DNA from: Schmidtea polychroa
Lineage: Eukaryota
Assembly: GCA_044892525.1 (NCBI GenBank)
Contig: CM097888.1
Span: forward strand, 92,628,001-92,692,000
Direction: 5' to 3'
Length of the DNA: 64,000 bases
Part shown: positions 15,601 to 42,600 of the stretch, piece after piece
Position numbering within the stretch: the first letter of the stretch is position 1
Layout of the letters: each line of letters begins with the position of its first letter
Translations under genes and position numbers: made by a program
The notes under the pieces: model-generated
The model's database searches: none
What the model saw: only the letters and a program-made list of their open reading frames with translations
What the model was told of the DNA's origin: nothing

Positions 15601-18600
15601 GATTTGTTGAATTCTGTATTGGAATAATCAGGACCTATTTGAGGTCGAAATGTTTCATTTTATGAATAAATATTGCGGATTATGGCATAGATAGTTATTT
15701 ATTTGAATTATATAATAATAATATTATTGTTATTATTGATTGATTAATTGATTGATTGATAATGCGATCTAATGAAGCCTACTTTGAAGTTCATTGGAGC
15801 GTGAATTATGTCCATAGCCGGTGATCTTGACAGTCAAATCCAACGAGGATGCTTGTATACATCTGCAGTTTTAACATTGGTTTTTACGGAATGTAATTAT
15901 TAGATTAAATATGGCTGCCAACATTGATGAACCTTTAAACGTGTTTCTAATAATAATGCTGTAATTTGTGACCAACAATGCGTAATACCATACCGTATTA
16001 ATAGCAAAGTGTCATGCTCTATAACTTGCGGTTGGTAATATATATTCAAGCCAAAGCTCATGCAAACTGCATCGCCATAAAATGTTTATAAGCATAAACA
16101 CTGTGGAATGCATCTGATTTTAGTTTATTGATTCCCTACCACCCCCTCCCCCCGGGCTCCCAATAATGATTACTAGCCACAGAACGTCTGGTATTATTTG
16201 AATCAAATAAAAAATAAAGATTTCGAATATTTATTATTTCATCGTAATAATATTTAAACAAATCACATCATAATTGGCACGAGGAGTTATTATAAGGATA
16301 ATTGATGGATAAGTAAACATTTCAACATATGACGCGTTAATATAGTCTCTTATAGTACGAAATTGTCTTTCAATTACACCATTAGTATTATGATGATACG
16401 GACTCGAAAATATCAACTCAATTCCTGCTGCCTTTGCAAGTTCTTTAATGCTATTTGCTTCGAAATTCTTTCCACAATCAACATGTAGTTCCTTAGGGGC
16501 TCCAAATTTCAATATCCAATTATTTAACAAAACTGCCTTTATTGTATTTTCATCTTGCTTTCTAATAGGAGTTAGAGATATGTATTTACTGTAATGATCG
16601 ATTATTGCACAAATATATTTTTCTCCTCTGAAGGTTTCTCTTAATGGACCGCAAATATCTATGTATATTTTCTCCATAGGTTCTGAAGCTTGAATTACTT
16701 GGGTTTTTTCTTTTGACTTTGTAGTTAAAACTTTGTTTTTCTGACATGCTTCACATATTGAAATAGTCTCTTTTACTTCATTTAGCAAATCTTCCATATC
16801 AAAATTGTTCCAAATATATTTCATAACTTTTTCTACTCCTGCGTGGCATAATAATAAATGTGTTTCCTTAATCATTTCTCGTCTTTTTGTTTCTGGTATC
16901 CATATTTAGTTTTGATTGGTATAGATAATATTTCCTTTTAACATATATTTATTATTTTTCCTTTCATTTATTTGATCTTTTATTTCTCGTATTTCTGCCT
17001 TATCTCTTTGCCATTCATTTCCATTATTTTCGGTCATCAATGTTAACAATCTAGTTTTTAATCGCCCTGATTTGGGATTATCATGGTCCATCAAACATTG
17101 TACACATTTGCCGCATGTATTCCTAGACAGCATATCTGCATTCGTATGCGCCGTACCTTTTCTGAACTCCATTTCTATGTCTAAACTGCTCAAGTAATTT
17201 ATCCACGTTTGGAACTGTGCTGTTATAGGCTTCTTTGTCGTTAACATAAAAGTTATTGCTTTATGATCAGTGCGCAAAACAAACCGCTTACCGTATAAAT
17301 AATGGTTGAAATGGCGACAGAAATAATATATAGCCAAAAGCTCTTTTCGTGTTATACAATATCCTCTTTCATGGCTACTCATTGCATGGGATCCATATGC
17401 AATAACGTGTTCATGCCCCATTTCATCTCTTTGTGATAATACAGCTCCAATTGTATCAAAGCTTACGTCTGTATCTAATATGAATTCTTTCTTGAAATCT
17501 GGAAATACGAGAATTGGCGCTGTAAAACTTTTATTGTTTTTAACAATCTCTAACAGTCTTTTATTTTCGTTTAATCTTAGAATTTCTATTGCTTTTCGAC
17601 ATCTCTCGTTATCTGTAATCTTTTCCCAAAATCTAGCTTTTATTTCACACACAAATTCATTATATCCTTCTTCATTTTGCTTGATGTAGTTTAATTCAAT
17701 TCCAAACTCTTTCTGCAATTCCACTCCGCCTATTATATCTGGAACAATATTTTTAACTATTATAAATGTTATTTTTCATTCCATATTACCAATTCTAACA
17801 TCAATATGTATTTTTCCGATAATCTCTAATTTACTATCATTTGCACATCTTAACATCTCATCTGTTTTTATGATTTTCACATTCACTAATTTGTCCACAA
17901 CTGCTTCTGCCATTACATTTACTCTTGCTCCTGTATCTAGTAAGCATTCCATTCTGTAGCCCTGAATTTCAAGAGTTGTACTCGGTCTACCTTGCATTTT
18001 GTCATAACTCAATTTCGGTCGTTTCCATTCATCTTTAGTGAAAATATTTTGCTCCTCTGATATTTCATTAATCCACCCGATTTCATTTCTCTCTAATTTA
18101 TCTTCTGCCTTCTTAATAAATTTATAAACTTTTTCATTTACTATTTTATTATTATATTCTGCTTCTTTAATTTCATTATGCTCTTCTTGATTTTTAGGAT
18201 TATTATTATTATTTATTAAAGATCGATCAGCATTAAAATAACTATAACATTTAAAATTATTTAAAGGAAACTTTTTAAAATTACAAATTTTATTACATAA
18301 AGGTTCTACATTATTATATATAAGGATTATTTACACTATTAAAATTATTATGACCAATATTTACATCAATATCAAAATTACCTAGTATATTGCTCCGATC
18401 ATTGCCTCCCGTGTCGAAGCATGTACTTTTGGGTGCTGAATATCCTCATATTTGTCTTCTGCATCATCTGAATACTCCAGTGGCATCGTCTCATCATTAG
18501 CTTCAATTGCTGCAACTGTTCTTCCTGGATTGTTGATCTTTTGTTGATAGCTTGTGGTTCGATGGGCATAATAATTCTTGTTTCTCATGTTTGAATTAGT

Positions 18601-21600
18601 TTGAAACTTCCTTCTTTCCAAATTTGTATAGCAGTCAATCTCCTTGTGTCCACGTAAGTGACATCTCTGGCATTGAATCGTTGAACATTCTCGCCGTACG
18701 AGGCCTTCAACTTCGCATGCCAAACGCGTCATTTTCTTTTTCATTTGGCATTCTCGACTAACATGACCAGTTTTTTTGCATGTCCAGCATTCCAATTGTC
18801 GGTTACTGACATTTCGCTGCTTGAAATTATTATTTCCGTTTACCATTCCTCTTTGAGCAACATCTCTGTAGCTTCTGTAGTTTTAAACAACCGGTGAAGT
18901 TTTCACAACATTAATATGGCCCATAATTTTGTTTACCTTTTCTAATTTCTTTATTGTCGCTTTTATATCTTCTGATGTTTTCAAATCTTTCATTTCGATC
19001 TCTTACACAGTTTGTAAGCAGGCATTTTTCTATTTCTTCTTCATCCCATTTGTGCGCTATTAATTTCTTTGTCATCTTTTAAATTTTCTCTATAAAAGTT
19101 TCGGCTGAATCTGATCCTTGTTCATAACTCGAAGCTTCTTTTAGATCATCCATTAATGATGTCGGTTTCGAAAATGCACATCGAAGTTTCTCTTCCATAG
19201 TTTTTCCTTCGGCTGCTTCATAATCTTCCATTAGCGATCTGTCAAGTAATGTTGTAGTTAATATTACCTGCATCCTAATTGTTGTTTTTGTCGCGCCAAA
19301 AAACCTTTGACAATCCTTGATAAAATATTCTAGATCATCGCCTTTGTGAAATTTCTCAGGCAATAGTCTGCTTATCAATAAATCCGTGGTCGTGGTCGCC
19401 ATGTTAGACGCAATTAAATTCAAATCTTCTTCAAGCATTTAATTTTATAGCAACTTCAAAATTGTGCCGTTTACTAGCGTATTTAAACACCGAGGCGTGA
19501 TAATTAATAATATTAATGTAATTACTGGTCATACATTTAATTGATTTAATTTAATATAATTTAATATAATATGATATAATTTAATATAGAATTTAAATAT
19601 AAAAATTTAACAGAAATAATTATTTCTACTAACTGATCTCACTTCTACCATTTAATCATAATAATTTTATATAGGGGTTTACTAACTCCTTACAATGTGT
19701 AAACAAATCACATCATAATTGGCATGATGAGTTATTATAAGGATAATTAATGGATAAGTAAACATTTCAACATATAAACAACATTCAATAATAATATTTA
19801 ATTGATATTTAATTATCACTTCATAATGATCAGAATCACATCGACAGTTTCCTTTTATCTATTTGTTCGGCCCATGTTGAAATCCTTGCAAACCATTTGA
19901 TATGGTTCCATAGTTACTTCTTACTTATTTTCTATCAAATTGTTTCATTGTCAGCATTTATGTCCATCTCACCATGATTTCACTCTCTAACCCTTCCAAT
20001 TGCTTCCTTATCTCATTGATGCTGTGATGATGGCAACCAAATGTCATCATTCTACTATTCAATTTCTGCATCATATATGATTCGAACATTCTCCTACGTA
20101 TCTATCACCTTCTGTTTCTTCCTTTATCATATCTTTCTAAGAGGTCTAGTCCTCATAAGTATCACAATCAGCACAATCCGTTTGCTTAACTTGTCAACTA
20201 TATCAAATATTTATTCTCCCTTTCCCAAAGCTATTGCAAAACCTTCCCATGGTTCATAGCATCGCCCAAGTTCAATTAATCCTTATTTCAGGCTCTATGA
20301 GCCCTTGATATTTATCAAACTAAAATAGACTCACTTGAACACTTTCATTTGGGAAATATATTTTATGTTGGATGAGCTTGCCCATTTGAACGGCGTTAAT
20401 TTCGATTGCATGAGGGGGATAGCGCCTCTGACCCAGTCTGGAAAGAACACAATTTATCTCTAGATGTTTACAAAACGATTTACTTCAAAGTTTTTTGTAA
20501 ACGAGTCTGACATTCGAGAGCTAGCGGAGAACTTGCGGACCTAAATACCTCGAGGAGTTCTCTATAAAGATTCGAGTTAGGGACCATGATACCAGTTGCA
20601 AGCCAGATTAATTCCCACCCAGCCTTTTCACTTTGACTATAGAAAGCATATAAAATCCCATCAAACAATCCTAAAAACTCACGGATTGGGATTAAATGTT
20701 ACCTGGGTTATCAACTGACAGTAGACCTCATCTTTCAGTATTTCTTGTTTCAAGCAGGGATCAAAAATAGATTCTACAATCTCAGTCGAGCTGTAATTCC
20801 TAGAAGGTTGGTCTCCCATGTAGATGAGAATGGCACTGAAACAGGATATTGCTTGTTGACAGAGATCCTCTTTATTCAATAATTTCTTTAGGAGAGGCAA
20901 CTTTAGCAGCTGGCGACTGTGCTGCCACAAATTGTCAGCAACTTGCTTACCTAGGCTCATGACGAATGACCTATTCCCACTAGCAGGAGTCCTAACGCAA
21001 TCAAATCCCATTTGTATAATTGAAATAAACATAATAAAGCATCAAACCTGAAATATATTTTACTAAATTCCTCCAACGTATGTTGATTCCCTTTCATATT
21101 GTTGCCGTTATTGCTAGGTCCGCCATCATACGCGTCTCCAAAGCTCCGATCACTAAACAAGGCAAGAATATTCTGGGAAGGGAAATTAATAATTGGCAAT
21201 ATGTAAACGATGTCAGCAGGGAAATCTCCATTCTCTTTCGTGCGATAATTCTCCCCATAATACCAATCAGATGTTGAAATTCCTCTCAGGGTGTCGTTGG
21301 TCTCCAATATCAACAGGTCGCCTTTCTCACAGGATAGAAAGGATAAATCTGGAAACCATAAATTCAAGCCTAATTAATAAATTTCCACGTAGGCAAATCA
21401 CCAGGTTTAGAGAATGCTTGCACCACAATTGCATAATGACTTCGCTCTTTGAGACCTTCAAGGAAAAATACAATTAAATCTCTAATATCTTCAGAATTGG
21501 CGCAGTTGAAGGTATAATTGCCTCCTTTCACAGTTGACAACGAAAGTGACTGTCCATGCAATCGGCTCGTGCTGAAAAAGTATATGAAATTCTAATTAAA

Positions 21601-24600
21601 TGGTTAATTATATTTATATTCATATTAATTATATTCATATCTAATTTATATTTAATCACCTACAAGATATACATGCATACTATTCCGCAGCCGCCACCGC
21701 AGCCGCCACCGCCGCTTATGCAGCTGCCGCAAATATACTAATATACTAAGACTTACTTAGAGGTTATGAAATTCATGGTCCTGAATGACTTTTATTAATA
21801 ACATTATGGTATTTGATACGACTTTGTTTNNNNNNNNNNNNNNNNNNNNNNNNNNNNNNNNNNNNNNNNNNNNNNNNNNNNNNNNNNNNNNNNNNNNNNN
21901 NNNNNNNNNNNNNNNNNNNNNNNNNNNNNNNNNNNNNNNNNNNNNNNNNNNNNNNNNNNNNNNNNNNNNNNNNNNNNNNNNNNNNNNNNNNNNNNNNNNN
22001 NNNNNNNNNNNNNNNNNNNNNNNNNNNNNNNNNNNNNNNNNNNNNNNNNNNNNNNNNCTGCTACAATTTCAGGGAAGGAGAGCTCAAGGTGGATGCGTTC
22101 ATTCGAATCAACGAGATAAACCCCGGTCCAGTTAACAGTAAATATAACTTCATTGGTATCCAAGGAGGGGCCTGAGAATTTGACGGCTTCATAAAATCTC
22201 GAAAAGAGCATTGGCCATTTAAGTCTTGCAAAAGTCACAATTTCTTCTTTCAATTTTTCATTCGAAATCGAATCTTTACTAGAAGTTTCATTTAAATTCT
22301 TCACCGCCTGAAACCCATAGGTAAAATATCCCCATGACGAACTCGTCCTCAATTACTTGATTGAGTAGGCTCAGCCAATATTTTTTCTTTTCTTTTGTCG
22401 TTCCGATGACGGACCGAGGAAGGTATTTATGGAGAATTTCCTCCGTCAAATCTGTCACGTTGTCGATCCTCAGTTGATAGGCGCACAATTTGCACATGTC
22501 CTTATCCTGCAATTGAAATTGGAAATATAATGTTTGAACTTCAGTATTCACATACGGTATCACATCGATATTCACCGAATTTGATGCCCCTCATGACCTG
22601 ATGGTAAATGAGATCTGTAGCAACACTGTCCTCACAAGCGCTATGCCAGGGCGTGAAAATCTCTTTGCGAAAAAATAATCTCCACTGTGCTTTTGATTCT
22701 ACTTGACCTTTTTCTTTAGCGAATTGTTCGCATTGACTAATTGCATCCATTACATGATCTCCACCACTGCCAATTGAGGAGACCTGTTATAATGTAGCAA
22801 TTACTAAGCAAATAATTATCTCTTTCTATAATGCTCAACCTCAATAGGCGAAGAGCCATATCAGTAATCAGCGATTTATTCGCAGACATTGACGAGTTGC
22901 ATATATCATATCTGCTGGAGAAAGTTCGGATAGTCCCCAAGATAAGAAGGTAATAAAAGTAATAAAAGGTAAATAAGAACAAGTACAATACTAGAGGTAT
23001 GAGGAAATCAAGGAACAACTGACTGATGAAGAGAAATGGAAGCTCCTAAACAGAATTCTCCTCAGCTGTAGCTAAGGGATAACCATAATGAAAGCGCTGA
23101 TTGGAAAGCTCAAATTTATTATCAAGGCCAAATCAAAAGGAAATATTCCTCAAAGCAATTTATTTGTCTGTTGATATAATCATTGATAACATTTAATTGC
23201 CCTCCTTATCAAGGCTATCAAGCATCGAGGGGTCACAAATATATTGATTATTCTATCATGGCAATATTGATTGGTCATAAATATATTGATTATTCTAGCA
23301 GTGCAATATTGATTGGTTATAAATATATTGATTATTCTAGCAGGGCAATATTGATTGGTCACAAATATATTGATTATTCTATCATGGCAATATTGATTGG
23401 TCATAAATATATTGATTATTCTAGCAGTGCAATATTGATTGGTCATAAATATATTGATTATTCTAGCAGTGCAATATTGATTGGTCATAATTATATTGAT
23501 TATTCTAGCAGTGCAATATTGATTGGTCACAAATATATTGATTATTCTAGCAGGGCAATATTGATTGGTCATAAATATATTGATTATTCTAGCAGTGCAA
23601 TATTGATTGGTCATAAATATATTGATTATTCTAGCAGTGCAATATTGATTGGTCACAAATATATTGATTATTCTATCATGGCAATATTGATTGGTCATAA
23701 ATATATTGATTATTCTAGCAGGGCAATATTGATTGGTCACAAATATATTGATTATTCTAGCAGTGCAATATTGATTGGAAACCGAGATTGTATTTGTGTT
23801 AAGTCAATATTTTTATATCATCAGCAATTTCCAGCAAAATTTGGAGGCAGATCGGAGGNNNNNNNNNNNNNNNNNNNNNNNNNNNNNNNNNNNNNNNNNN
23901 NNNNNNNNNNNNNNNNNNNNNNNNNNNNNNNNNNNNNNNNNNNNNNNNNNNNNNNNNNNNNNNNNNNNNNNNNNNNNNNNNNNNNNNNNCTCTCCATCAA
24001 TTGTGAAAGGAAAATTCATGAAAATTATGGTTTCCCCCCAAAAAAGAAAATGTCCATTCCTCACCTCATTCTCAGATAAAATGGTCAGCTTGGAAAATGG
24101 GGCCAAAACAAAATATTGTGAAATCAAAACTGAATGTTACCCAAATTCTTACTTTATCAAAAATGGCAATGAAAAGAGAAAATCCGAATTGATCCTTCAG
24201 GCAAATTTTCTGTGACAATATCGAGCATAATTCTTGGGCCGTTGACGCAGAATCCGCGAAAATCGTCTCCGTGTTGCCGTTCATACAAGCCACGGCGAGT
24301 ATTATTGGCTCTTTGTGTTTGATCGCCTTCAATTCTAACCAACTTGGTGGCTGATTTCGAGTTCCGTTTGAAAATGTTCGTTGCAACCGGAAAACAATAA
24401 ATTTCGCGTAATCTTTGAAATTCGTTTGAATAAAATTGCGCAAGGTCCTGACGAACTTTTCGGTCGGCGCAAAACAGCCAATACACAGGTTCAATAGGAT
24501 CAGACCTGGAAAATGAAGGATTACAAAGGGATACACGGGTCCTTTTACATACAACTGTGAGCCATATCACACACACACACACACACATGACAACTAAATG

Positions 24601-27600
24601 CTCCTTATTAACATGACCATACTGGTCACAACTCTATAAGGGTTACAGATATGGTCATTATTGCATTTAAACTACTATCACAACCTCCAATAATGTGATT
24701 TCAACATGTCTGCTGCGACACTGACACGCAGTGAGAGACGCCTCATAAAGCTCACAAATACGTTTTGCAGCTGATTTTCAGCAATGCATTCTATGCGATT
24801 AGGTCTCCGTTTGCAAGTCTCCTGAAATGCAAGGCTCGATCAATTCATATTAGCCCTTGTACCATATGAATCTCAAGGGATAAAATCTAGTGATCATGGG
24901 GCGATGCATTCAGTAATGAATGCGCCTTATTTTGATAAAGTGAACCTATTTTTGAAACTTGGCAAGTTCATGAGTAGAAGGTTCATACATGAACAATAAA
25001 CCCTAGAAAGCTCTTCAATTCATACGCAATTCAGTAACTAGGCGCCATGAACCTGACTAATGGGAAATATTTATAATATACAATCTAGAAGGATTCCGCA
25101 TGAGCAATAAGAGTAAATACGACAAATATATTATTCCCACCTCTACTCACGCTATCCAACTTCCCATTGTCCACCAACTGTTTGCAGATCTGACAATAGA
25201 TCTCATCTCGCAGCTCTGGAATTAGAATGCCATTTCCAATTATAAAATGCAATTTCTCTAAGTTTGAAGTCGGCCTCTCTTCTAATAAAGAACTCAAAGT
25301 CTTCGTATTCAGCGGATTCTCAGCATCCTTCAGATGATTGACAACTTCATCTGTGAACTTTGACTTCTTTTTCAGGGTTAAGGACACGATGTTCTTTCTG
25401 TTTGTCCTCATTGAGAGATTCTCGAATGGCATTCCATNNNNNNNNNNNNNNNNNNNNNNNNNNNNNNNNNNNNNNNNNNNNNNNNNNNNNNNNNNNNNNN
25501 NNNNNNNNNNNNNNNNNNNNNNNNNNNNNNNNNNNNNNNNNNNNNNNNNNNNNNNNNNNNNNNNNNNNNNNNNNNNNNNNNNNNNNNNNNNGCCTGGAGT
25601 GTAAAATAAATAAAGAATTACTATATTTAGAAACAGTATAAATAAAAATTACTGAAAATAAAAGATAGGTTTTATTAATTACTATTAATAGATTTAGGTA
25701 ATATATAGGAATATTTGATAATACTATTACTATATATAGTAATTATAAAATTACTATTAATATAATAAATAATTATAATGTGATATAAATACTGGTTCAA
25801 ACGAGAACCAAGGGACGATAAAAACATAGACGAGAAAATTGACGATAACTTGCGGACGAGAAAAACTGTCAAGAAAGTTCGAAAAGAAATTGAAACAATA
25901 ATTTAGAAAATTATTATCACTTTGAAAAAAAAACGAAAACGTGATTAGAGAATCACTGTGTTAATTATTTAATTTAGAAGTGCAACATTTACGATCAAAT
26001 TAGTTCATTATTGTGATTAAAGAATCACTGTGTTTATTTTAATTAATTTCAACGCAACTCCGAGTTGTTTAAATTGGATATAAACAATAGCCCACACACG
26101 AAGAAATTCCGGCTCCAATTTCAAATCAATATCAACGGAGAAATTCTACTATAAATTGATCATCAAATTAGTTGAGACGAAAAAAAAAGGAAAATCAGAA
26201 ATTAGTCGAGAGCTAAGAATATTGTCGTCACAGAATTGTAAAGAAGATTGGTCTACAACATTGTTTAAACATTCAGGTAGATTTGATTATCAAGGGATAA
26301 ACTAGTATCCCGTTAAATAGGTAAAATTAAAGCGAACACAAAGTATAGATCTTTTACTTTAGTGTTCCCTGGGAGCCTCAAAATCATTCCCTCTTACTTG
26401 CCCAACTCTTTTAGTCGAATTGCGATCGTTGTGCTACACAGGAGCCATCGATTTCTTGCAGGCTGTGGTAAACAGTAAGGATTAATAAATCCGTTTTCTT
26501 GTACTCTTTGTACATATATTATAAAGTTCGTTTTGTAAATTATAAAATACATATTTATAAACAGAGAAAGAGTTTGTTTTGTTTTTTTAACTCAGTAATT
26601 TAAATATTAAACGCGCAACCACATTAAATATAATTTATTTATATTCATTTATATCTTTTTTCATTTATTTAACCTATTGGAGTCATTTGTGTTAGGATCT
26701 ATTGTCCCCGTTTTTCGATCTTAACATTTTGGTGAGCCCGACGTGATCTAATTTACGGGGGGAATAAGAATTTTATTTATAAGAGGCAAACATCTTTTTG
26801 AATCATTGAGTTAAGAAATAGAAGGGTAATAAATTTAAGACCAGGTAATAGAAACCAGCAAATAATGGCAGAGATAAATAATTTACAAAATTTAAACGAG
26901 AATAATTTACAAAATAATAATGTGCCAGTAGCTCAACCACCAGCGGTAGATTTTATGAGATACCCAACAATTCCGATTAAACCATTTAGTGGAAATCCAG
27001 GGGAGTTTCCAGAATTTATGTCCGAATATTTTCAGTTAGCCAGAGCATTAGGATTCCCGGAACCGGTAATGATTTTGAGATTACCTTTATATTTAAAAGG
27101 GATGGCACGGGAAATATATAACGATGTTATAATAGCCGAGCATCCAGTTGAATGGAATGTATTACGATTAGCATTACAAAATAGAATATTACCGGGGGAT
27201 GCAACTAGAGTGCTGAGACAACAGTTTTATAACAGGCGACAAAATTCGGGTGAGCATGTTGGGGAATTTTCATATCAAATAATGATGTTGGCAGAGAGAG
27301 CATTTGGTAATAGGGCAGCCTGGAATGATGCAACTAGAGCATTAGTAAAAGATCAGTTTTGGTCTGGGTTATCGTCAGCAATGAGAAATGCACTCAGTTT
27401 ACACATAGGAGATAATTTAGAGGAATTAACTCGTAAAGCGTGTTTAATTGAGAGTAGCATTGAGAAGTCAAACAATTTTGCAATTAGTAGCAACAAGTCA
27501 GACATTGAGTGTTTTAATTGTCATAAAAAGGGACATATGTCAAAAGATTGTAAAAGTAGGAATAATTCTCCAGGGGACAAATTATGTACCAAGTGTGGGA

Positions 27601-30600
27601 GAAATAATCATGTGGCATCAAACTGTAGAATTTCGGACCTAAATTGTGAGAAATTTTGTGGAAAATTTGGTCATATTATGCGTTCATGTCCACAAAATCA
27701 GTTATCTAATAACAATGGTAGTGGCAACAATGGTAATAATCGATCAAAGCAGACAACGTTTGCAGTAAATTCAGACCACAAATTAACGTATTTGCAGCAG
27801 CTTGAATTAGAAATTCAAGAAGTAAGAAACAGGTTAGCAAGGCTAACAACAAATGAAACTGATGGGTACGATGAAAATGAAGGTGTTTATATGACGTCAG
27901 CCAGAAAAAGGCGAAATAAAAATAATTATGTAGAACTTGAAGTGTTGATGCTTCAAGAGAGTCCAAGGGAGGACAAAGAGGAAAAGACTATGGTCATGGA
28001 ACCAGAGGTCTGTGAGGGTTTACAGGTTTCACCCAGGAAAAATCTAGTGGCTGTGGCAATGGAGCCAGAAGCCAACAGAGAAATAGAAGGTTTACCGGTT
28101 TCACCAGTCAAAAATCGTAAGGCTATGGACATGGATCCAGTAGTTAATGAAATTGTTCCAACAGAAGTTTTGGAAAAAAGATGGGCTTCGGTCATTAAGC
28201 CGGAAGTTCTTCTAGCCACATCATCCATGCGAGGTGAGTGTGGTAGCGAACCAATAAAGGTTAGAGAAGCATCGAAAGAGGAAAGAAATCCCATCGATGA
28301 CTGTAGAAAAATACTATTACGCAAAAGCGTATGGCAAAGAGAAATGAGACAGAAATTAGAAAATATTCGTTTAAACCCTGTTAATGAGAATGAGGTTGAC
28401 AAAGTAATGGATATCATATCAGAGTTAGACAGAAATGAGGAATATTATCCAGAATTGAGAGAAATTCTGAGAAATATTGGCCTAAATTGGAAACAAAGAG
28501 AGAATCTGGAGGATTCTACCATTTTTGTATCTTTCCCAAAGGGTTGTTTTCGTAGATATACAATTAACCCAAGTGAAAAGGTAGAAGTATTGGCAAAGAG
28601 AGTTTCGGTGGTAAAACCTCAACAGAGATGCAAACTATACTTATTGGGAGAAAGATTATTAGAGGGAGAAACCTTGTTAGATTGTGGTATACTACCAGGG
28701 AAAAATATGGTTATAAAAGCAAAGTTTCACAAGGAAACTGTTACAGTAGTGGACTTGGATAATGTCCTTACTATAAGCGAGATTGAAATTGATCAATTAA
28801 ATCAAATATCAGCCGTACCACATAGATTGGGAATTGAACTGATGAAAAACCCAAGAGATGGGGAAGCCATTAAGATGATAATGGATTGGATACTGGAGTT
28901 GCGAATCCCAGTAGATACTCTTAGAGAGATAATGCCATTGGTGGTGCCTTTAGTAAAAGAGACATCACAATTCCAGACACAAGCAAAGATGCTGTTGATT
29001 AAAAATGGACATGCTATTAGACATTTGGAAGGTAGACAAGGTCCAGTGATGTTAGATATCAGGATACCCAGGAGAGGACACCTGATACAACAATTCTCAT
29101 GTTATCATAGGGTAAAGAAACTGAGAAAAAGGATATCAGAAATATTAAAAGAGTCATTCCTAATAATGATACATGGTTGTCAGGTGGATGACGACGAATT
29201 TCTAGTAGATGTTGGATGTTTTCCCAATGAGGAAACAGTTGTATTAATATTACTGGTAGAGTTTCCAGAGGATGAATGGGCAACTTTGAGATTGCCAGAT
29301 AATGCTGAAATGGAGGATGAAACAGTACATCCAGAGCGAAAACATTTAGACGGGAATACTCATCAGGAACCCGTAACTACAGTAGATTTAGATGAAGAGA
29401 TAGATAAATATCTCAAGGAACTTGATAACACTGAAGACGAGTTGGTCGAAATATTTCCTACAGAGGAAGATAATGAAGTACAATTAAATCGAGATGAAAC
29501 AAACATCGGAGCTAGTACATCGCGACAAGCCGAGCCACCAAGAGAAAGAGTGAGCCCGAAATTAGTAGAGAATAAAAAGAAAAGGGAGAGAAGGGGTAGA
29601 CCGAGGAAAAGTCAAATGAACCCACCTCCAAGAGAACTTCTAAAACCAGTTACAATACAAAATGTAACTAAGCAGGCTCTAGCAGGGATAGCTAGCCAAA
29701 TCGATAAAAGCGTTGGAGACGCTAGTGATAAAACGGAAACATGGAAAAGACTGAATCAAATCTTACGACTGATTAAGCCCGATTGGCAAATCAAGAAAGA
29801 TAAAAGTGTTAATGTTGACAAAATTGCAGAAAAAGTCAAGAAAGCTATGGAAAAGATTCCAGGAAGCACTACGGAACAGGAGATGTTCGAAATAGCAGGG
29901 CAATTCATAGATGAAGGCCTGACGAAAGGGAAAATGATAACGATTCTAGCCTTAATGTTTAAAAATGCATTGAGCATAATTAAAGATGATTCGTCGAAAA
30001 TTCCAGCAGCCATAGACAAGCTGACTGATATCATCGAAGTGAATTTCAGAACATGGATGACTGAGCACAAGTTTTGGGATATAAAAGAAACGAAAGGAAA
30101 ATATGAATTAAATGAAGAATTGTTGACAGAAAATATTTCAAGTAGTCCACGGGGAACAGGTGGATTTACTAGTTGGATGATGATGTTGTTGGTAATGATG
30201 GGAATACTGCGACAGACAAATTCCCTAACGGCATATGATTGTAGTGAACCAATACTATCGCGAATCTACTCATTAGTTGACACAGTGGAATGCAAGGAAG
30301 CATATCCAGATAAAGTTGCAAAAAGGGAAGACGTAGAATATCATGTTTATCAGCAAACAGAGTTTTACAGAACCAGAGTGAGGGAATGTCGAATACAGAG
30401 AGCGACGTTCGAATATTACTGTGGATCGAATAGTTATTCAGCATTTTTAGGAGCTAAACTCATTCCTATACCGTTAATCATCCCACCAGAGGATTGTGTA
30501 AATGCTTTCCGGTCAAAAACAGTCAAAATAGATCAGGAGGTAACAATTACCGCGGAAGAGGGGAAAAAGTTGGGTATAACTATTACCCGGGGTGGACCGA

Positions 30601-33600
30601 TAGCAGAAGATGGTTCTTGTCATGGTAGAAAGAAAGTTAGAGGTTCTAATGTAGTAAGCTATGTGGTAACAGTTGAGGACTACACAGTAGAGCTGATAGA
30701 GTACGAAGGAACTTTCGAAGTATCCACGGGAAAAATGATGTCTCATCCAGAATGCAACGTGAAATATGGTTATTGTAAAACCAGTTTAGCAGTATTAACG
30801 TACCAATCAATGAGAGATTTTTGTGATTTAGGATACCTGAAAAAGGTAGTATTTTCAAGGCTAGATGGGAAGAGTTTTACGTCTCAGGATTCACAACAAA
30901 GTGGTTGGGGAGACAAGATAACTCACAAAACGAAAAAGGAAGTAGTACCGGAGAAAAGCACAGCAGTAGTATTAGTCTCCAAGGACCCAACAGATGCAAT
31001 TCGTTTAGTCAGAAAGAAACAGACAACGAAATGTGGTGTACCAATATTTGAAACCAACTACAAGGGAATATACTTAGCATACAAGTATGTTCCAGCAGCA
31101 GAATCATTGCATCTATCAGATATTAAAATAGCCAAGTATATCAATAATAAGATTGATTTCTTGTATCATGATCTGCAGAAACAATTATTAGATGTCTATC
31201 AGGAAGTGATCCTGAACGACTGTCGTTTGAATCGGGAAATAATACGGAATAGATTAGCAATATCTATAGCTAATCCGGATCTAATAATGCCAATGTTGAC
31301 AGAGGAAGGAACATTCGGCAGAATTTTGGGCGAAGCAATTTATAGCTATCAGTGCAAAGCAATAGAGGTGGAAATTACCAAATATGATCGATGTACATTG
31401 GAGTTACCAGTGAAATATAAAGGAAAATTGAGATTCCTGATGCCAGTATCACACCAGCTATTAAAGGAGGATACCTCACCATTGACAGCAATTTGCAATC
31501 CAGCAATGTCACCATTATACAAAATTAACAATATTTGGATTTCGTTGCCAGATAGAAAACCGCCTTCAAAACCAGTTGAAGTGCTTCAAGCGACAAAGTT
31601 AGAAACTAAAATGGAGTTTCAACCATTAAACGAGATGTCAAAAGGAGGAGTATATACTCCGGAAGATATTGAAGAAGCTCGGAGAGCAATCGTATTTCCC
31701 CAAATCAGAAATAGGGGAGTGACGGAAATAATAACAAGAATCTATCAATCATATGATGGAAAACCGGACTATAACTTATTATTTGGACCAGAACATTATA
31801 AACAAGCTGCATCCAATGTAATACGGAAAATCTGGGGTAGATTTACAAGCTTTGGCATTTTTGTAGCAGGATGTTCAGGTATATATGCAATAGTGATGAT
31901 ATTGAAAATAATCATATCGCAATTATTTTCTACCTATAGTATCTTCAAGATCGGGGGATGGTCTTGGAAGTTGCTACTAGGAATGTGTCCAGTTTGTGCA
32001 GATTTTGCAGTATTTCATCATCATAATAAAGAGATTAAAAGAATGAAGAGACAAACTATAAAGAAGCATGAGTTAATAATGTATGAACCTAGTCATCGAG
32101 ACGATGACAATTCTGACGAGGGAGGTAACCTAGAGGGCTATGAGACTTCAGACAACACCTCAATAAAACCAGACAACAAAAAACCGAAATTTCAAAATTT
32201 TGAAAACAGTACTTTACAACAGTACCCTGTTAAAGCAAAAAGGAGGAAACGGCAGGAGTGGCCCGTAAATTACTTGTCTCCATACGAGGGTAGAAAAAAG
32301 ATAATACCAGAACGAGTTGAAGAGGAAATGTTAAAGAGGCTCGAGTTTAGAACGAATACAGATATATCACCATCTACCTCATACCCAACGTATAAAATGA
32401 AGTTCGAGACAATGCCACCCTTGGGTACATCAGTATTTGAGATGGTACCGAAATATCCATTTAGCACGTTGGAACGGCTAAAGGAAGAGTATAAAGATGA
32501 AATAAAATCAGAAAATGACAAAGATAGTGATGATCAACAAAAGTTCAGAGACAATATTCGAGGAATCTCAACAATATTAATGGTCAATATGGGTAAAAAG
32601 ACTCATAAACCTACGATTAAACTAAAAGTTAACAGGCATACGGTACATGCCATTATTGATTCAGGATCAGATTTGACATTGATCGAAGCAAATTTATTAA
32701 ATGAAAAAGAATTACAAGCAATAGTGCCGACATTACTTGTTGCATCGGGAGCAAATGGACAACCTATCAATGTTATCGGAACATTAGATTGCGAATTAAG
32801 GTTGTGTGATCAAAAATTTAGACACGATATCAAGGTCACTAGACAATGTATGGCAGAATGTATCGTGGGAATGGATATATTGAAAAAGTTAAAAGATATT
32901 GTATTTGATTGTGCAACAGGTGAATTAGTGAAAATGACTGGTAGAAAACGGAAAACCTACAGTGTGGATGTAGTGTTTTTGGATAGAACGGTGACAATAC
33001 CACCGAGGACCGAAACAGTTTGTTTCGTAGCAACACACCAAGAGGTGGAAGGAGATGTTATTTTCGAACCCAGTGAGCAGTTCGTAAATAGGTATAAAAC
33101 GCCTATGGTGCAAAACTTGGCAACAGTACGGGGAGGAAGGATCCCGATTAGATTAACAAATCTAGCGAGCAAATCATTGAGATTATACCCAGAGACTAGA
33201 GTGGGTAAAGTGATACAACTTTCTAACATGCAGAAAGAGCATGAATCGATATTAGCAGTAGAAGAGGATGAACGAGATCCTGATATCGAATATTACGACG
33301 CACCGAGCTGCGATAGTAAAGCTTTATCTAGAAAAGAAAATATCAGAGTCAATCAATTATTACGTAAATATGACCAAGTTTTCGCAAAACACGAATATGA
33401 CTTAGGGCAAGTTAATATTCTAGAGCATGAGATTAAATTAACAGAAAATAAACCGATAAAAATTCGCCCGTACAGAATACCTCAAAGCATACAAGGGTCC
33501 GTTGACAAACAAATTAATGCAAAAATATAATATAATCAGACCCAGTAAATCTCCATATTCCTCACCTTTGGTGGTTGTAGCTAAAAGAGACGGCTCAGTC

Positions 33601-36600
33601 AGATTATGTAATGACTATAGGAAATTAAATGAACAAACAGTTAGTGATAATCACCCGCTACCTTTGCTAGACTACATTTATGATAAAATGAAAAATTCAA
33701 AGTTGTTTACTGTGATGGATGCACAGAAAGGTTTTTATCAAATAAAGATGAGCGAAGACTCAATTCCTATGACAGGATTTTCTACAAGTAGTGATCATTT
33801 TGAATACTTAGTAATGCCGTTTGGATTAAAAGGAGCCCCTCCAACTTTTCAGAGAGCAATGAATATCATGTTGATGGATGCACATCACGCAATGGTATAT
33901 ATAGACGATATTATCATCTTCTCGGAAGATTTAGATAAACATTTGGAACATCTAGAAGACATTTTCAAAAGATTGATTATGGCAAACCTGAAAGTAAAGC
34001 CAAGCAAATGCAAATGGGCAGAATCGGAAGTGATTTACGTGGGGCATGTAATATCACACGATTGCGTAAGACCAGATCCGGCGAACACGGATAAAGTAAA
34101 GAATTTCCCACAACCAGTGAATGTAAAACAAATCAAAGGATTTTTAGGGTTGACGGGATACTATCGGAAATTTATACGAAATTTTTCAGCAATAGCTTTT
34201 CCTCTAACTACCTTAGAAAAGAAAGGTATAAAATTTTTATGGGGAGAAGATCAGCAACAGGCATTCGATAAGTTAAAAGATGCACTATGCAAACCACCAA
34301 TTCTACGATTTCCAGATTTTAAAAGACAATTCATGGTGATGACCGATGCATGCACAAGAGGTATAGGTGCCGTTTTGGGACAGAAAGACGAAATTGGCGA
34401 TGAGTACGCAGTAGCATATGCAAGTCGTGGATTGAAGCCACACGAAAAAAGTTATGCTGTAATAGAATTGGAAGCATTAGCATTAGTATTTGCAGTGGAA
34501 AAATTTAGTCATTACCTATGGGGCAGAAAGATAATTTTCTATACGGATCATAGACCATTGCAATGGCTGTTAAAACATAGGGATGAAGCATCAAAATTAG
34601 TAAGATGGGCATTGAGATTACAGCCATATAATATCGAAATAGTATATCGTAAAGGTAAAGCTAATGGTAATGCAGATGCATTATCACGAATGGAACAAGA
34701 GCCTGAGTTAGAAGATATAAAGGAAGGAAGATTAGAAGGAACAATCTTCATGCTAACAAGAGAGGCTAACACTTTGAGCGATATAGTAGAAGCGCAAAAA
34801 AATGATGACGAAATCAATATGATCAGACAAGCTATAGAAGCAAAGGCCATACCAAATGAATTTCAGAAATATTGGGAGAGACATAAAGATAAATTCATAT
34901 TGGAAGAAGGGCTAATCAAATACGTTGAATCAAGGGATAATGTAATATTAGTACCAAAGAAATACAGAGAATCACTATTATTACAATACCACGACGGAGC
35001 ACTGGGAGGACATCTCTCAGTTAGACATACACTGTCAAGATTAAAAATGAAATACTTCTGGCCAGATATGAAAGATGATGTTAAAAAGTGGTGTCAATCA
35101 TGTAAGATATGTATAACCAGAAGGAACACAGGCAGGAAACCACATGTTCCATTGAAACCAATGCCAGTACCGTCCTCGCCAATGGAGATGACTGCTATGG
35201 ACGTACTAGGGCCGTTTAAAGAATCAAAAATGGGAAATAAATTTATCATAGTATTTTGCGATTACTTAACCAAGTGGCCCGAAGCATTCCCAATTCCGAA
35301 TCATAAGGCAGACACAATTGCCAGAATCTTTGTAGAACAAATAGTATTCAGATATGGTGTTCCAACAAAATTACTTACCGACAGAGGAAAGGATTTCATG
35401 AGTAATCTGTTAAAAAGTATAAATGATTATTTTGGTATTTTAAAATTAAATACCTCACCATACCATCCACAGACGGATGGATTGGTAGAAAGGTTCAATG
35501 GAACCTTGGCAAACATGTTATCATCATACGTAAACTCAGGTCAGACGGACTGGGATGTACACATACCATCGTGTTTGTTTGCGTACAGAAATGCTGTTCA
35601 TTCAGTAACAGGAGAAACACCTTTCTATCTGATGTATTTAAGGCATAACAAGATGCCAGTAGATCTTATATTTTATCCGAAAGCTTCACAGAATTGTGAT
35701 GAGGAAAATTACTTATTCGAGATGAGAGAGAGAATGCAAGAAGCCTGGGAAAAAGCAGGTTTGAACATTCGTTATAACCAAGAAACGATGAAGGAATATC
35801 ATGATCGTAAAGCGAAGGATCATGGGTTTTTGGTAGGAGATTATGTCATGTTAGAAGGACATTACAACAAAAAAGGTTTATCTCCAAAATTAATGAGAAA
35901 TTACAAAGGGCCGTATCAAATTTTGAAAGTCACAGAAACAAATTTAGTCTTGCAGTTAGTGACAAACAGAAAAGCAGAACCGATAATGGTTCATGCAAAC
36001 AGATGTAAAAAGATAGCCCCACCAGAAAAGGAGAAACCAAAATCAGAAATCGATGAATTCGAAATAGATAAGAAATCGAAAAAGAAAACGTTGGAATCAT
36101 ACAAAAGTATCCTAAAAGGACAACCGGAACGATACCCTTTACGATCTCGGCAAGTACCGAAAACAGTTACATTTCTAGCAGTGATTAGTTGTGTTATGAT
36201 GATTGGACAAGCATTCGAGGTATTCACACCTAAAGCCAGTCAACATCCAGATATCGAATATCAACGAACAGATAGAGCGTTCAGATTTCATTTAACGAAT
36301 ATACAATGGCATAGATATGATTTATATTTGGTAGCTGCTGAAAGAGGGATATCATTTCACTTGAATACATGGGATCGAGTAAAAGTAATAGAAGGACTTA
36401 TGCCGAATACAAGTTATCTATTAGAAATCAAAACATTTTTTGCAGATCCAAACGTTTTTGCAGACGGAGGAGATTGTGTAGATAAAGCAGCATGGATTTT
36501 GAAGACTGCAAAATTTACCAAAAAAGTAGAGATTTCATATCTCGGGCAGATAGTAAGATTTACTCATCCACGGTGGAAAAGAAATGACACATCTTCCACT

Positions 36601-39600
36601 CACGATTGGAGGACGAATAATAAAATTGCGCTAATCGTCATATTAGAAAACGACCAGCGAGTCGAGAGATTAGTGCTCAACCATGCGTATCTAAGTAAAA
36701 GATGGAAAATCAAACCAGATACCGTGATAAAAGCGAATATTTCGTATTTGGAATTTACGGAGAGAACCGGTTGGTATACAATATATCAAGAAATAGTAAA
36801 TCTAATACCTCCCACAAAGGGAGAACTAACTAGCAAAGAAGGAAAGGCTAGATTAGTAAATATTCCTGGTTGTAAAGGAATAAATGCTTTAGATTGGTTT
36901 AGTATTAGAAAGGTAGCGAGTGTAAAACAGCCCCGCATAACTAAAATAATTAATAATTGTAGTTGTCAAAATACGTTAAAGGGGGCAGCGAGGGAGAAAA
37001 CGCCAACATGGCTATTGTTAATTATGATAGGGGGAGTAATTTGCATGATTTTAATTTTGCTCTTAACCACCCTATGGATGTTTAGATTAAATATACGAGA
37101 TATGCGTTATTGGGAAAATATTTACGAAACCGAGGTATAGGGGGAAAGTCTCACCATATACTAGGAAGTGTAAATATATATAGTTATTTATTTTATATAT
37201 ATGTTATTTATATTAGTATGTAGACTAATGTGGGCTCAAATGAGCATTGGTAAAATCAGACATCAGCGTATGTCGACTTTGGTTACCCTGCGAGGGTCTA
37301 TCACGAAAGTGATAAAAGCTGTTAATTATCTTATTTTTAGAAAAATGAATTATAGCAGAGAATCAAAGCCGCCAGTCAAGGCAAATCGACGACACCCATT
37401 AGCAACGTACAATTCCCAAACTCGAGTGGAAACTGAAGTGTATAGCACCTATAAAGAAGAGTATGTATATCGGTTCATCGGAACCACGGTAGCAGCAAAG
37501 ATGAATCACCTCACCTCAAACTATTGGTATTATCCCAGGAGAGTGGATATTCCAAATGACTTCAAATTTCCAGGAGGGCCTCGAAGGCAAATGATGGTAA
37601 CGGTTATAAATAACCAAGGTAGATTAAAATTGGCGGAACTATGTAGAGAGTATGGTTCAAGTCCGAAAGTAGAAAACATTTGGATCCATGCGATCAATAG
37701 GCCATTTACTGTGTTTATGGCGGGTTTAGAGCTACCTGTTGAATTAGAAAAACAGTGTACTCTGGAGATATACCACGCTGATGGACGAGAACGGAATATT
37801 ATGATCCAGGCAGCGGCGGTGGACACCATAATCGTAGTGGAAATCTTAGACTTCAGGAAACCATACTCTATAGTTAGCAAAAACGAGCCAACTTGGATTT
37901 ATAATGTAAATGAAGCTGATATACAGCAGTGTAAATCATTCGTGAGGAAGAAGTTAACCAAAGCCGAGGAGGATGAGGCTACAATTTTCATATCGGCAGG
38001 TTTTGCCAAATCCCGAATCGAATTGAAGGAGACAATTATCCAAATCGCAATTATGGATATGAGAGGAAATAATTTATTGAGTGCGATAGTGACTCCCAGA
38101 GATCCAGTAAAACATTACCAAACGCACCAATATAAGTTAAAAGAACCCGACATTAGAGGAAATCTCGATGAAGACGATTGTCATCATCTGATAAGAAAGA
38201 TCTGCGATAAGAAAATACTGGTAGGTATTTTACTTAAAGATCTGATCTCGGTAGCCAATCTACCAGTGCAGCGAATTTTGGGTATTCGTGACCTTTCGGC
38301 AAATAAACTATTGGAAACCAGAGGAGTCCCAAAGATCCATGGTCATTACAGTTTGGGATTCCTGACAAAAACTTTCCTGCGTACGGTTCCCGGAGAACCA
38401 AGGAATTTAGTGGTCACCAATGAGGCACTGGCAATACGTGCTGTTTATTTACATATCAGAAACGAATGGTTAGACCATATCACGATACCTCAGGAGGAAT
38501 TCATTTCCGCAACTACAGCAGCGATAGTTGAACAGGAAATGACGCAGAAGAGGAGATTACCTGAGCAACCATCTACATCAGAGCAACCCCAGCCCAAGAG
38601 GAAATCACCTGTGGATCTACCACCGCCTCCAGCCATATCTATTGGAGAAGAAGATGAATATGAAACATGTGCTAGTGAAATAGAGACAGCAAAATCACCT
38701 AAACAACCATCAGGAGCTGCCTATCAGCCAAAGGATAAATCGGATAATGCGGTCAGAAAAGAAAATCCAGAAGGAGGCAAGGTGAAAAAGATGTTAAAGA
38801 AAATGTTACCCATTAAAAGAGACAAATCGAAGTTAAAGTTGAAGAAAGTTGTTAAACCGTCGGAAGGAACGACAAAAGATACACCCAGCGGTTCGGAAGA
38901 TAGGACTATTAAACCTCAAAAGATATTCAGCGAACCAGATGATGACATTATGGAAGTTGCCTTTCAACCTCCGGTTAAGGAGATGCAGGAAGCAATAAAG
39001 GTTAAATCTGAACCTGTGGTAAGGCAGAAATTGTTAAAGATTGCCAAGGAGAATATCATCAAGAAACCAGTTTCGGTTGATGTGGACGGTTTCGAACCAA
39101 TGTGGTACAAACGTCCGGATAGTAAATGGAAACCCAGAGCGAAGGAGTATGACTGCCAACCAGTCACGAGAATGGCAGTCAATAATAACCAAAAATATGA
39201 TGTTTATGACGTAGACGGGATCCCTTACGTGGTGTCTACAGTCATATTAACAAGTGCTCTGGATGGTAAGCCTTTAGCAGTGAGTTTTGAGCCAGATGTC
39301 TTACAGAAGAGGAAGAAGAAGTTGTTGCAGCAATACGTCATTGCGAATAGCTACAGCACAAAGGAAGTGCACCTTTACAAAGTTCCAGACCCAGATCCCG
39401 ATGATCTGGATATCTAACCCAAGAGCGTTGCCACCCAACATGTGTCGTCAAATTCAAATGTGTACAAAATAACTTAACTATTATTTGAGTTGTGTTTTTC
39501 AGTGTTCTGACATTCATTATTTGTGATCTGAAACATTTATATTTTTTGTGTTTTGTCTTATTTGATTAATTTTTATGTTTTATTGTAATACTGTTTACGA

Positions 39601-42600
39601 AAAGCCTTTCCTTAGTCTTGGTTTTGTCTTGTTTTCGAGACGAAAATCTTTTAGGGGGTAAGACTTGTTAGGGATAGGCCTGGGGCCTGGAGTGTAAAAT
39701 AAATAAAGAATTACTATATTTAGAAACAGTATAAATAAAAATTACTGAAAATAAAAGATAGGTTTTATTAATTACTATTAATAGATTTAGGTAATATATA
39801 GGAATATTTGATAATACTATTACTATATATAGTAATTATAAAATTACTATTAATATAATAAATAATTATAATGTGATATAAATACTGGTTCAAACGAGAA
39901 CCAAGGGACGATAAAAACATAGACGAGAAAATTGACGATAACTTGCGGACGAGAAAAACTGTCAAGAAAGTTCGAAAAGAAATTGAAACAATAATTTAGA
40001 AAATTATTATCACTTTGAAAAAAAAACGAAAACGTGATTAGAGAATCACTGTGTTAATTATTTAATTTAGAAGTGCAACATTTACGATCAAATTAGTTCA
40101 TTATTGTGATTAAAGAATCACTGTGTTTATTTTAATTAATTTCAACGCAACTCCGAGTTGTTTAAATTGGATATAAACAATAGCCCACACACGAAGAAAT
40201 TCCGGCTCCAATTTCAAATCAATATCAACGGAGAAATTCTACTATAAATTGATCATCAAATTAGTTGAGACGAAAAAAAAAGGAAAATCAGAAATTAGTC
40301 GAGAGCTAAGAATATTGTCGTCACAGAATTGTAAAGAAGATTGGTCTACAACATTGTTTAAACATTCAGGTAGATTTGATTATCAAGGGATAAACTAGTA
40401 TCCCGTTAAATAGGTAAAATTAAAGCGAACACAAAGTATAGATCTTTTACTTTAGTGTTCCCTGGGAGCCTCAAAATCATTCCCTCTTACTTGCCCAACT
40501 CTTTTAGTCGAATTGCGATCGTTGTGCTACACAGGAGCCATCGATTTCTTGCAGGCTGTGGTAAACAGTAAGGATTAATAAATCCGTTTTCTTGTACTCT
40601 TTGTACATATATTATAAAGTTCGTTTTGTAAATTATAAAATACATATTTATAAACAGAGAAAGAGTTTGTTTTGTTTTTTTAACTCAGTAATTTAAATAT
40701 TAAACGCGCAACCACATTAAATATAATTTATTTATATTCATTTATATCTTTTTTCATTTATTTAACCTATTGGAGTCATTTGTGTTAGGATCTATTGTCC
40801 CCGTTNNNNNNNNNNNNNNNNNNNNNNNNNNNNNNNNNNNNNNNNNNNNNNNNNNNNNNNNNNNNNNNNNNNNNNNNNNNNNNNNNNNNNNNNNNNNNNN
40901 NNNNNNNNNNNNNNNNNNNNNNNNNNNNNNNNNNNNNNNNNNNNNNNNNNNNNNNNNNNNNNNNNNNNNNNNNNNNNNNNNNNNNNNNNNNNNNNNNNNN
41001 NNNNNNNNNNNNNNNNNNNNNNNNNNNNNNNNNNNNNNNNNNNNNNNNNNNNNNNNNNNNNNNNNNNNNNNNNNNNNNNNNNNNNNNNNNNNNNNNNNNN
41101 NNNNNNNNNNNNNNNNNNNNNNNNNNNNNNNNNNNNNNNNNNNNNNNNNNNNNNNNNNNNNNNNNNNNNNNNNNNNNNNNNNNNNNNNNNNNNNNNNNNN
41201 NNNNNNNNNNNNNNNNNNNNNNNNNNNNNNNNNNNNNNNNNNNNNNNNNNNNNNNNNNNNNNNNNNNNNNNNNNNNNNNNNNNNNNNNNNNNNNNNNNNN
41301 NNNNNNNNNNNNNNNNNNNNNNNNNNNNNNNNNNNNNNNNNNNNNNNNNNNNNNNNNNNNNNNNNNNNNNNNNNNNNNNNNNNNNNNNNNNNNNNNNNNN
41401 NNNNNNNNNNNNNNNNNNNNNNNNNNNNNNNNNNNNNNNNNNCAGCTTCCTCTGCAGCTTTCAAAATGTCTTGCTTATTGAACTGTCGGCCAAGAGATTG
41501 ATATATTTTTGTCATTATAGGAACTGAATTCGCTTGAGATGTCTGACTCTGGTTCACCAAAGGTTCAGGTAGATCTTTCATAAACCTCAGAATGGCTATC
41601 CACACTGCCAGTGCTGACTAGAGAAGAAGATATTAAAACAATCATATTACTGGACTGCAATATATATACTATTTGATGGTTGGGGTTCGAATGAAACAGC
41701 AAAGGTTTCCTTAAAGGTTTTCGTGAGAAATTCGGATCAGAATCCTTCTGGAAATAAGTGGCAGCAAATTTTGTGAATGTGAATTCTGAGACGTCCTCAT
41801 CGAGAATGTTGACCAAATAATCAGGCATCGTTGTAGCAAATACCGAGCTGACATCATTGAGAGCGTTCATCCGTGACATCTCCAGATCCTGGAATGCTCT
41901 CGGTGCATGGGACAATGAATTTGAGAGAGATTTCACGCTGTAGCCATCAATCGAGCCGAAAATCTCATCAAGCTAAAATAAGAAAAGAAATCAAATTTCT
42001 GTGGAAATTTCATTCTAGTTCAATTAGGCGTTGTCAGTAATTTGATTCAGTGTCCATGAATTATTAATGAAATCAAGCTGAATTATGAATGAGCAAGAGT
42101 TGTTTTACCATCTCTGATTCATCCACTGGCTGGTTGCGCCTCCTCTCTGCCTCTGCAATCCTCTGTTTCATGTTCCTATTGTCCTTGATTTGCTGCTGGG
42201 CCTCTGCTAGTGACTGGCTGTGGATTGCATTGAGCCGCACCTGAATTGCAATATACAGCATCATCACTCGGCATCCTTGCTAGAACATTTCATAGCTACT
42301 CAAGCATTACAAGAAACCAGGAAAAGAGAAAGTACGCCAACAAAAGAAATAAAATCACCGAATTTTTATTTCAAATATCAAATGTTAAATGAAATCATTT
42401 ATTTATTAGTGAGACTGGAGGGGAAGCTTTATGAATTTGGTTGTACTTTCTGTTATTGTTAGGCACTTAATGCCCCTATATAACTGAGAGCCCCCCCCCC
42501 CACCCTCCCCTCCTCCTCCGTTCCTTATATCAATGCTACATGGGAAATTATCAGTAGAGAATCCTTTGATAGAAATCTGTAACGGAGAAAATGTTTTTAT

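Follow-up and report, generated by a model that had tools for sequence, protein, structure and literature searches.

The locus raises the question of what a planarian retroelement encodes between its Gag and its envelope, where two ubiquitin-like segments lie in one open frame, and of what this segment might do for the element. It is located in a stretch of 64,000 nucleotides from Schmidtea polychroa (contig CM097888.1 of assembly GCA_044892525.1, positions 92,628,001 to 92,692,000, forward strand), hereafter referred to as the window. A previous reading made from the letters alone (the sequence-only reading) had described a tandemly duplicated module of a helical domain, a ubiquitin-like domain (UBL) and a motif resembling a SUMO-interacting motif (SIM-like motif) after Gag, and had proposed that it works as a non-conjugatable di-UBL adaptor. 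The duplicated unit is a four-helix domain followed by a UBL without di-Gly, and is present twice in a Gag-Env-Pol polyprotein. The features of the element are as follows (coordinates in the window, strand, description):

25592..26726 (+), 5' LTR, recognized by identity to the 3' LTR; its start lies inside an N-masked stretch
26802..33530 (+), ORF1 polyprotein, 2242 codons in one open frame (Gag, cargo, Bcl-2-like, envelope, protease)
26865..27700 (+), capsid part of Gag with three zinc knuckles of the CCHC type (zf-CCHC in three stretches, E 1.6e-8; Retrotrans_gag E 0.047)
28284..28511 (+), helical domain H1, homologue of H2 (helical in AF2; HHalign 87%; dN/dS 0.04)
28512..28730 (+), UBL1, predicted beta-grasp, no di-Gly (Pfam, AF2, Foldseek)
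28746..28760 (+), SIM-like acidic hydrophobic motif 1 (window's family only)
28788..29039 (+), helical domain H2, four helices, predicted to be TND/LEDGF-IBD-like (AF2 pLDDT 83.6; fold searches)
29040..29270 (+), UBL2, no di-Gly, with the basic helix face and acidic loop common to the modules (profile homology)
29271..29501 (+), acidic linker of 77 residues, 27 of them D/E and 6 K/R; contains SIM-like motif 2
29379-29393 (+), SIM-like motif 2, inside the acidic linker after UBL2
29574..29615 (+), basic stretch with the AT-hook core Arg-Gly-Arg-Pro; possible nuclear localisation signal
29835..30077 (+), Bcl-2-like domain (PF00452 E 0.006, below the Pfam cut-off), in the same place as in the published Burro
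30225..32099 (+), Monjiviricetes-type fusion glycoprotein, env (PF24664 E 5e-81)
32604..32894 (+), aspartyl protease (RVP E 6e-7)
33460..37140 (+), RT, RNase H and integrase with a C-terminal extension, in a separate frame in the window copy
37174..39417 (+), third ORF, no Pfam match
39666..40805 (+), 3' LTR; its end lies inside an N-masked stretch

The element is a young, multi-copy, Burro-like LTR retroelement. The visible parts of its LTRs are identical (25592-26712 and 39685-40805, over 1121 nt), and the 3' end of the 5' LTR was read from the sequence as a CA before a primer-binding-site-like TGG. The LTRs surround gag, protease, RT, RNase H and integrase in the gypsy order; env lies in frame between gag and protease within ORF1, with a signal-peptide-like stretch ahead of it, and the cargo of UBLs and a Bcl-2-like domain (the latter a match below the Pfam cut-off) sits upstream of env. 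Pfam matches to MATH, BIR and ankyrin were not found in the three ORFs of the element, nor was a UBA match in its ORFs; FxGF motifs were absent from the three ORFs, and no PWWP-like reader was seen in ORF1 by Pfam. The C-terminal extension of the integrase (36160-37140) ends in a hydrophobic segment, with a weak transmembrane Pfam match only, and the third ORF (37174-39417) is present in a second family (F2, see below) as well.

The element type, the order of its genes and the placing of a UBL ahead of Bcl-2 have been published before. Burro/GYPSM1 are giant gypsy-like planarian elements (Arkhipova and Yushenova 2019, PMC6431247), and the available part of their description agrees with the window element in a Gag with three CCHC knuckles, an env in frame between gag and protease, and a Ubi2/SUMO-like domain before a BCL-2-like domain. 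Unlike these giants (>30 kb), the window element measures about 15 kb and its ORF1 lacks MATH and BIR; the available text of PMC6431247 names one UBL and does not mention a repeated unit, a helical domain or an AT-hook. Layout, env type and size also agree with Smed_errantivirus_1 to 6 (14.5-15 kb for four of the six), the GAG-ENV-POL HSV/gB-type errantiviruses of Schmidtea (Chary and Hayashi, PMC13524379); the main text of that report, as far as available, contains neither 'ubiquitin' nor 'bcl' and does not describe the cargo. By eye, the window env is nearest to Smed_errantivirus number 4, and family F3 is nearest to number 2. New here are the repeated helical-UBL unit, the predicted TND/IBD likeness of its helical domain and the downstream AT-hook core, of which no description was found in the literature searched, the Burro papers being covered in part.

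In the genome the module region yielded at least 114 matches, in the window's family and in a sister family at about 40% identity. Five two-module families were distinguished: F1 (window), F2 (L024), F3 (L042), F4 (L044) and F5 (L062). Copies with stops were left out of the alignments; among the 51 module-2 matches shown, 4 had stops and 3 were partial or very short. Nine listed copies carry one single frame of 3516 codons, so that an unbroken frame encodes cargo and integrase as parts of a single polyprotein; the window copy shows a frame change near the protease-RT junction and, compared with one other copy, misses 69 residues in the knuckle region. The same genome holds a Burro1-like frame of 4791 codons, to which ORF1 aligns at about 30% from the linker onward, and at least 150 BIR matches, mostly within frames of 392-393 codons.

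Both UBL segments were found where they had been placed, after Gag and within the open frame 26802-33530. The tandem duplication is borderline in pairwise comparison within the window and clear across the five families. In the window alone, the whole-module self-similarity score was reached by 42 of 3000 shuffles with hand-picked borders and by 120/2000 and 64/2000 with looser borders; the score of UBL1 against UBL2 was reached by one shuffle in 2000, and that of the two helical motifs originally paired (LNP... and KNP...) by 108/2000. That pairing is off by one helix, the H1/H2 match being between the last two helices. Module profiles, built from four of the five families on which they were tested, found the respective other module in 5/5 two-module families (E 4e-5 to 7e-14). 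When profiles of the parts were compared, HHalign gave 87% for H1 against H2 (E 3.6e-6, 0/100 shuffles, reversed control 0.5%) and 96% for UBL1 against UBL2 (E 1.4e-9, 0/100 column shuffles). Across 21 modules that share about 20% identity, the core columns are conserved. Within F1, where few changes were available, purifying selection is seen in all four domains: dN/dS was 0.04-0.37 in the domains vs 0.56-0.61 in the upstream linker (two pairs).

Word-indexed protein searches with the module region gave no match, and a full HMMER search over 1.84 billion representatives gave 304 matches at E 0.001; the best 150 of these were listed and are mostly poly-UBL proteins without the helical domain. 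The helical domain was present in 12 of the 157 proteins examined; a UBL match follows at least one helical copy in 11 of them, and the twelfth protein ends at that point. Relatives carry the unit once (P0010, P0021, P0060 and P0157, read from Gag onward), twice (P0004, P0038 and partly P0023) or probably three times. The three-fold arrangement refers to two giant families. With the best decoy at 0.088, their last unit stands out clearly (E 2e-7 and 1e-12), the middle one is probable (1e-5 and 0.0025) and the first one is weak (0.007 and 0.14). In a module tree, most last or single modules cluster apart from the first modules with weak support, and some first and middle modules sit on long branches. 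On this grouping the duplication is placed before both the F1/F2 split and the splits among F3-F5; the tree fits one or several events. The relative P0060 combines one module with an env and four protease-like stretches.

For UBL1, the expected beta-grasp fold was borne out. Its Pfam ubiquitin match (E 0.0015) falls short of the curated cut-off. An AF2 model built from a two-sequence alignment has a mean pLDDT of 48.7, with about 80 for the first module, and modelled UBL1 superposes on ubiquitin with a Foldseek TM of about 0.8 and a structural Z of about 12. UBL1 is thus a beta-grasp domain as modelled. UBL2 alone had no ubiquitin match in Pfam and its own part of the AF2 model stays under pLDDT 50, so that the same claim holds for it by profile homology: its family profile matches the C-terminal UBL of ISG15 (E 0.003 and 0.0003), which is its best PDB match, and the UHRF1 UBL as well, and UBL2 is assigned to the beta-grasp fold on the basis of its homology to UBL1 and ISG15.

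The lack of a di-Gly also held, with no GG near the end of either UBL; among 26 UBL ends examined, one has GG within 12 residues, and none in the window's family does. The column equivalent to Ile44 of ubiquitin has Ile in 2/21 modules, Lys, Arg, Asp and Glu also occurring, and the Lys48 position is Glu in UBL1. The UBLs of the 21 modules have in common a helix with a strongly basic face and, ahead of an invariant Gly, an acidic loop. The proposed ISG15/Rad23-like di-UBL logic keeps the beta-grasp fold and the missing di-Gly as its basis and is otherwise weakly supported, as the UBLs are not adjacent and the Ile44 column is variable. As in ISG15/FAT10 and Rad23/Dsk2, the fold is a beta-grasp, with ISG15 as noted nearest in the PDB; unlike in ISG15/FAT10, di-Gly is lacking and the UBLs are separated by a helical domain, and unlike in Rad23/Dsk2, no UBA was seen and the Ile44 patch is not conserved. 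The case for a Rad23- or ISG15-like function of the UBLs is weak, SIM-like motif 1 being confined to one family and the Ile44 patch lacking conservation.

The helical domain is the part for which a new identity is suggested. Its likeness to TFIIS-N/LEDGF IBD was noticed in the alignment and recorded before the fold searches were made. Folded alone with AF2 from 24 rows, including the poorly aligned P0158, H2 forms four helices (pLDDT 83.6); in AF2 with a two-sequence alignment, H1 has a long first helix, not a hairpin. Across the 21 modules, the last helix closes with conserved basic residues and a conserved Gly. The top Foldseek match of the H2 model was the LEDGF TND (probability 0.93, TM 0.62, E 0.7), and 16 of the 44 rows shown were LEDGF IBD or PNUTS; there were no matches at E 0.001, the best E of 0.7 being not significant. 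A structure search over all representatives placed TNDs in 12/50 rows (LEDGF, HRP2, TFIIS, MED26, Elongin A, IWS1/Spn1 and PNUTS; one row assigned from entry title and length), aligned over almost their full length. Listed above the TNDs, and tied with them in Z, were three rows of HEAT/ARM type (Z 9.3); these matches are spread over 160-200 residues, the TND matches over about 85. When the 447 chains from Foldseek were realigned, the LEDGF IBD, one protein many times over, accounted for 12 of the top 13 rows (Z 8.8-9.8, rmsd 1.9-3.8 A, 71-85 residues aligned, 10-19% identity), with the best non-TND at Z 8.6; all Z values of H2 fall short of about 13, the value that the tool gives as a guide for helical domains. 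An MIT reading of the domain was rejected, as the MIT matches have an rmsd of 13-14; BAG and death folds, also considered, are absent from the listed Foldseek rows and stay candidates. The ESM Atlas gave only weak matches to H2, under 0.8, and BFVD none at E 0.001.

On these grounds H2 probably adopts a TND-like fold. Descent of the helical domain from TNDs would at present be a matter of likeness between predicted folds, without sequence support: Pfam on 16 helical segments gave no Med26 or LEDGF match and no consistent family, the TND/IBD profiles PF08711 and PF11467 were not matched, and MED26 was matched at E 2 only. HHalign of the helical profile (P0158, P0054 and P0016 dropped) against host TND/IBD alignments, of which the IBD alignment consists of three partial rows only (the search for host IBDs yielded one protein), gave under 2%, with several pairs below the reversed control. 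The host candidate donors comprise one LEDGF-family match above the cut-off and 26 of 35 Med26-family matches above it. Two LEDGF-like IBD exons (L072 and L073, the latter below the Pfam cut-off) were seen in the host, as was an expanded family of many near-identical IWS1-like TND matches (L078-L084) at about 164-172 Mb of C2. According to the available part of PMC9987994, TNDs consist of five helices. The modelled H2 fold superposes on the LEDGF/p75 and HRP2 IBD and the TFIIS N-terminal family (71-85 residues, 1.9-3.8 A) and, like LEDGF/p75, shows basic residues near the last helix and an AT-hook-like motif in the same chain; unlike them, it has four helices, 10-19% identity and no profile-level homology, is always fused to a UBL and is encoded by a mobile element.

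The SIM-like motif claimed after each UBL was retained in part: motif 1 occurs in one of the five two-module families, and motif 2 recurs. Searched with a pattern derived from the window sequence itself, a SIM-like motif was found within 120 residues after the last UBL in 6/15 sequences vs 0.74 expected, and in 4/13 when F1 and its sister F2 are set aside. An AT-hook core lies within 200 residues downstream in 8/14 relatives vs 0.05 expected (P0016 skipped as too short); F1, F2 and the giants have it, and it is absent from F3-F5, P0017, P0023 and P0157; both motif counts are non-independent owing to the relatedness of the sequences. Pfam AT_hook matches the relative P0038 at E 0.027, and in the window the Arg-Gly-Arg-Pro core stands in a basic context as an AT-hook-like motif, predicted to contact DNA. 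SIM-like motif 2 may matter: it is a putative ligand of SUMO or, acting in cis, of a conserved basic face, either that on the UBL helix or that on the helical domain.

We tentatively read the unit as an element-encoded scaffold, whose predicted TND-like half would bind acidic motifs in chromatin or transcription factors of the host and whose AT-hook-like motif would hold DNA. A chromatin role is proposed because a predicted TND-like domain, an AT-hook and a basic stretch share one chain. TNDs lack catalytic activity; what they recognize are acidic helical motifs in transcription factors (PMC9987994, as far as available). Their contacts with TND-interacting motifs involve hydrophobic pockets together with a patch of basic residues, of which the modules show conserved basic columns. 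In the proposed sequence of events, the cargo would be released from Gag and Env by the element's protease together with signal peptidase, and the accessory protein excised between nucleocapsid and envelope would carry the binding scaffold. The basic stretch would drive nuclear entry, the helical domains would bind or titrate TND-interacting motifs (SPT6/IWS1 type) and thereby favour the element's own transcription or integration, and the UBL would act as a fixed partner surface, not as a modifier. One point against a chromatin scaffold is the end of the cargo, formed by a Bcl-2-like domain and the signal-like stretch of env: without a further cleavage, this end could fix the cargo in a membrane.

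A bolder version, in which the element encodes its own LEDGF, i.e., a captured and repeated IBD/TND with UBL and AT-hook that tethers integrase or hijacks the host TND-TIM network, appears doubtful. If true, it would be the reverse of the lentiviruses borrowing a host domain, TNDs being known as host scaffolds exploited by viral integrases. Its narrowest form, a self-made LEDGF whose helical domain binds the element's integrase and whose AT-hook tethers the integration complex to chromatin, is quite unlikely. The LEDGF IBD is the best structural match, and where the frame is unbroken cargo and integrase belong to one polyprotein; IBD plus AT-hooks is the layout of LEDGF itself. The TND assignment is itself a prediction, three families lack the AT-hook core and no PWWP-like reader was seen in ORF1. 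LEDGF and HRP2 TNDs serve lentiviral integrases as tethers, which favours such a role, and it is for lentiviral integrases that IBD binding is described, which speaks against extending it here (PMC9987994, available part). The passive alternative of a passenger or spacer without function, to which the copy number of one to three and the long branches of some first and middle modules would conform, is highly improbable, being largely refuted by the purifying selection on the domains and by core columns conserved at about 20% identity.

Two other readings place the unit outside chromatin. That of the sequence-only reading, a non-conjugatable UBL adaptor engaging the proteasome, p97 or SUMO machinery through its UBLs and SIMs, is rather unlikely. 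Its foundations are the beta-grasp fold without di-Gly, the SIM-like motif after the last UBL in 6/15 sequences and the conserved basic face on the UBL helix, as in the SIM groove of SUMO. Ile in the Ile44 column of 2/21 modules, Glu at the Lys48 position of UBL1 and a motif after the first UBL in one family out of five argue against it; since some relatives have a single unit, a di-UBL is dispensable, and the helical domain is left unexplained. Also in its favour, the giant Burro is reported to carry MATH, BIR and Bcl-2 domains, which have links to ubiquitin and to the control of apoptosis (PMC6431247, available part). In the remaining reading, the unit acts in the cytoplasm on the Bcl-2-like domain next to it, as the regulatory part of a membrane-anchored anti-death protein, and the TND likeness reflects a HEAT fold of the generic two-hairpin kind. 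In 7/7 families read in the genome the Bcl-2-like domain comes after the last module, HEAT/ARM fragments tie with TNDs in Z, and Burro1 is reported, second-hand in the available part of PMC13465017, to protect stem cells via an IAP domain. We regard this reading as improbable, as the AT-hook core stands between the unit and the Bcl-2-like domain in 8/14 relatives and P0060 keeps unit and AT-hook without a Bcl-2 Pfam match.

If the preferred scaffold reading is true, a mobile element with its own TND, present in one to three copies and each time joined to a UBL, would represent a new way of steering transcription or integration, in a stem-cell-rich host in which a giant relative is reported to affect regeneration, and an unannotated part of the Burro polyprotein gains a testable identity; if the TND reading fails, a modest refinement of the published layout is left.

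Several further observations were made. Compared with the copies L058 and L049, synonymous divergence within the modules is about 0.12; from 29271 onward, immediately behind UBL2, it jumps to 0.5-0.64, a level that extends through env, which points to recombination between subfamilies at the module edge. Between the middle and last modules, by eye, the second giant family (L066) has an acidic stretch where the Burro1-like family (L067) has a MATH-like domain. Ahead of the AT-hook, at about 29500-29525, lies a short Ser/Thr-rich motif that, by eye, F1 and F2 share with the G1 giant, which carries a MATH domain; the motif is reminiscent of ligands of MATH/TRAF domains. Elsewhere in the window, a run of stop-separated frames occupies 16234-18882 (-) and a 645-codon frame 48514-50451 (-), and tandem arrays of 42-bp and 13/15-bp units lie at 23100-23900 and 44560-45860.
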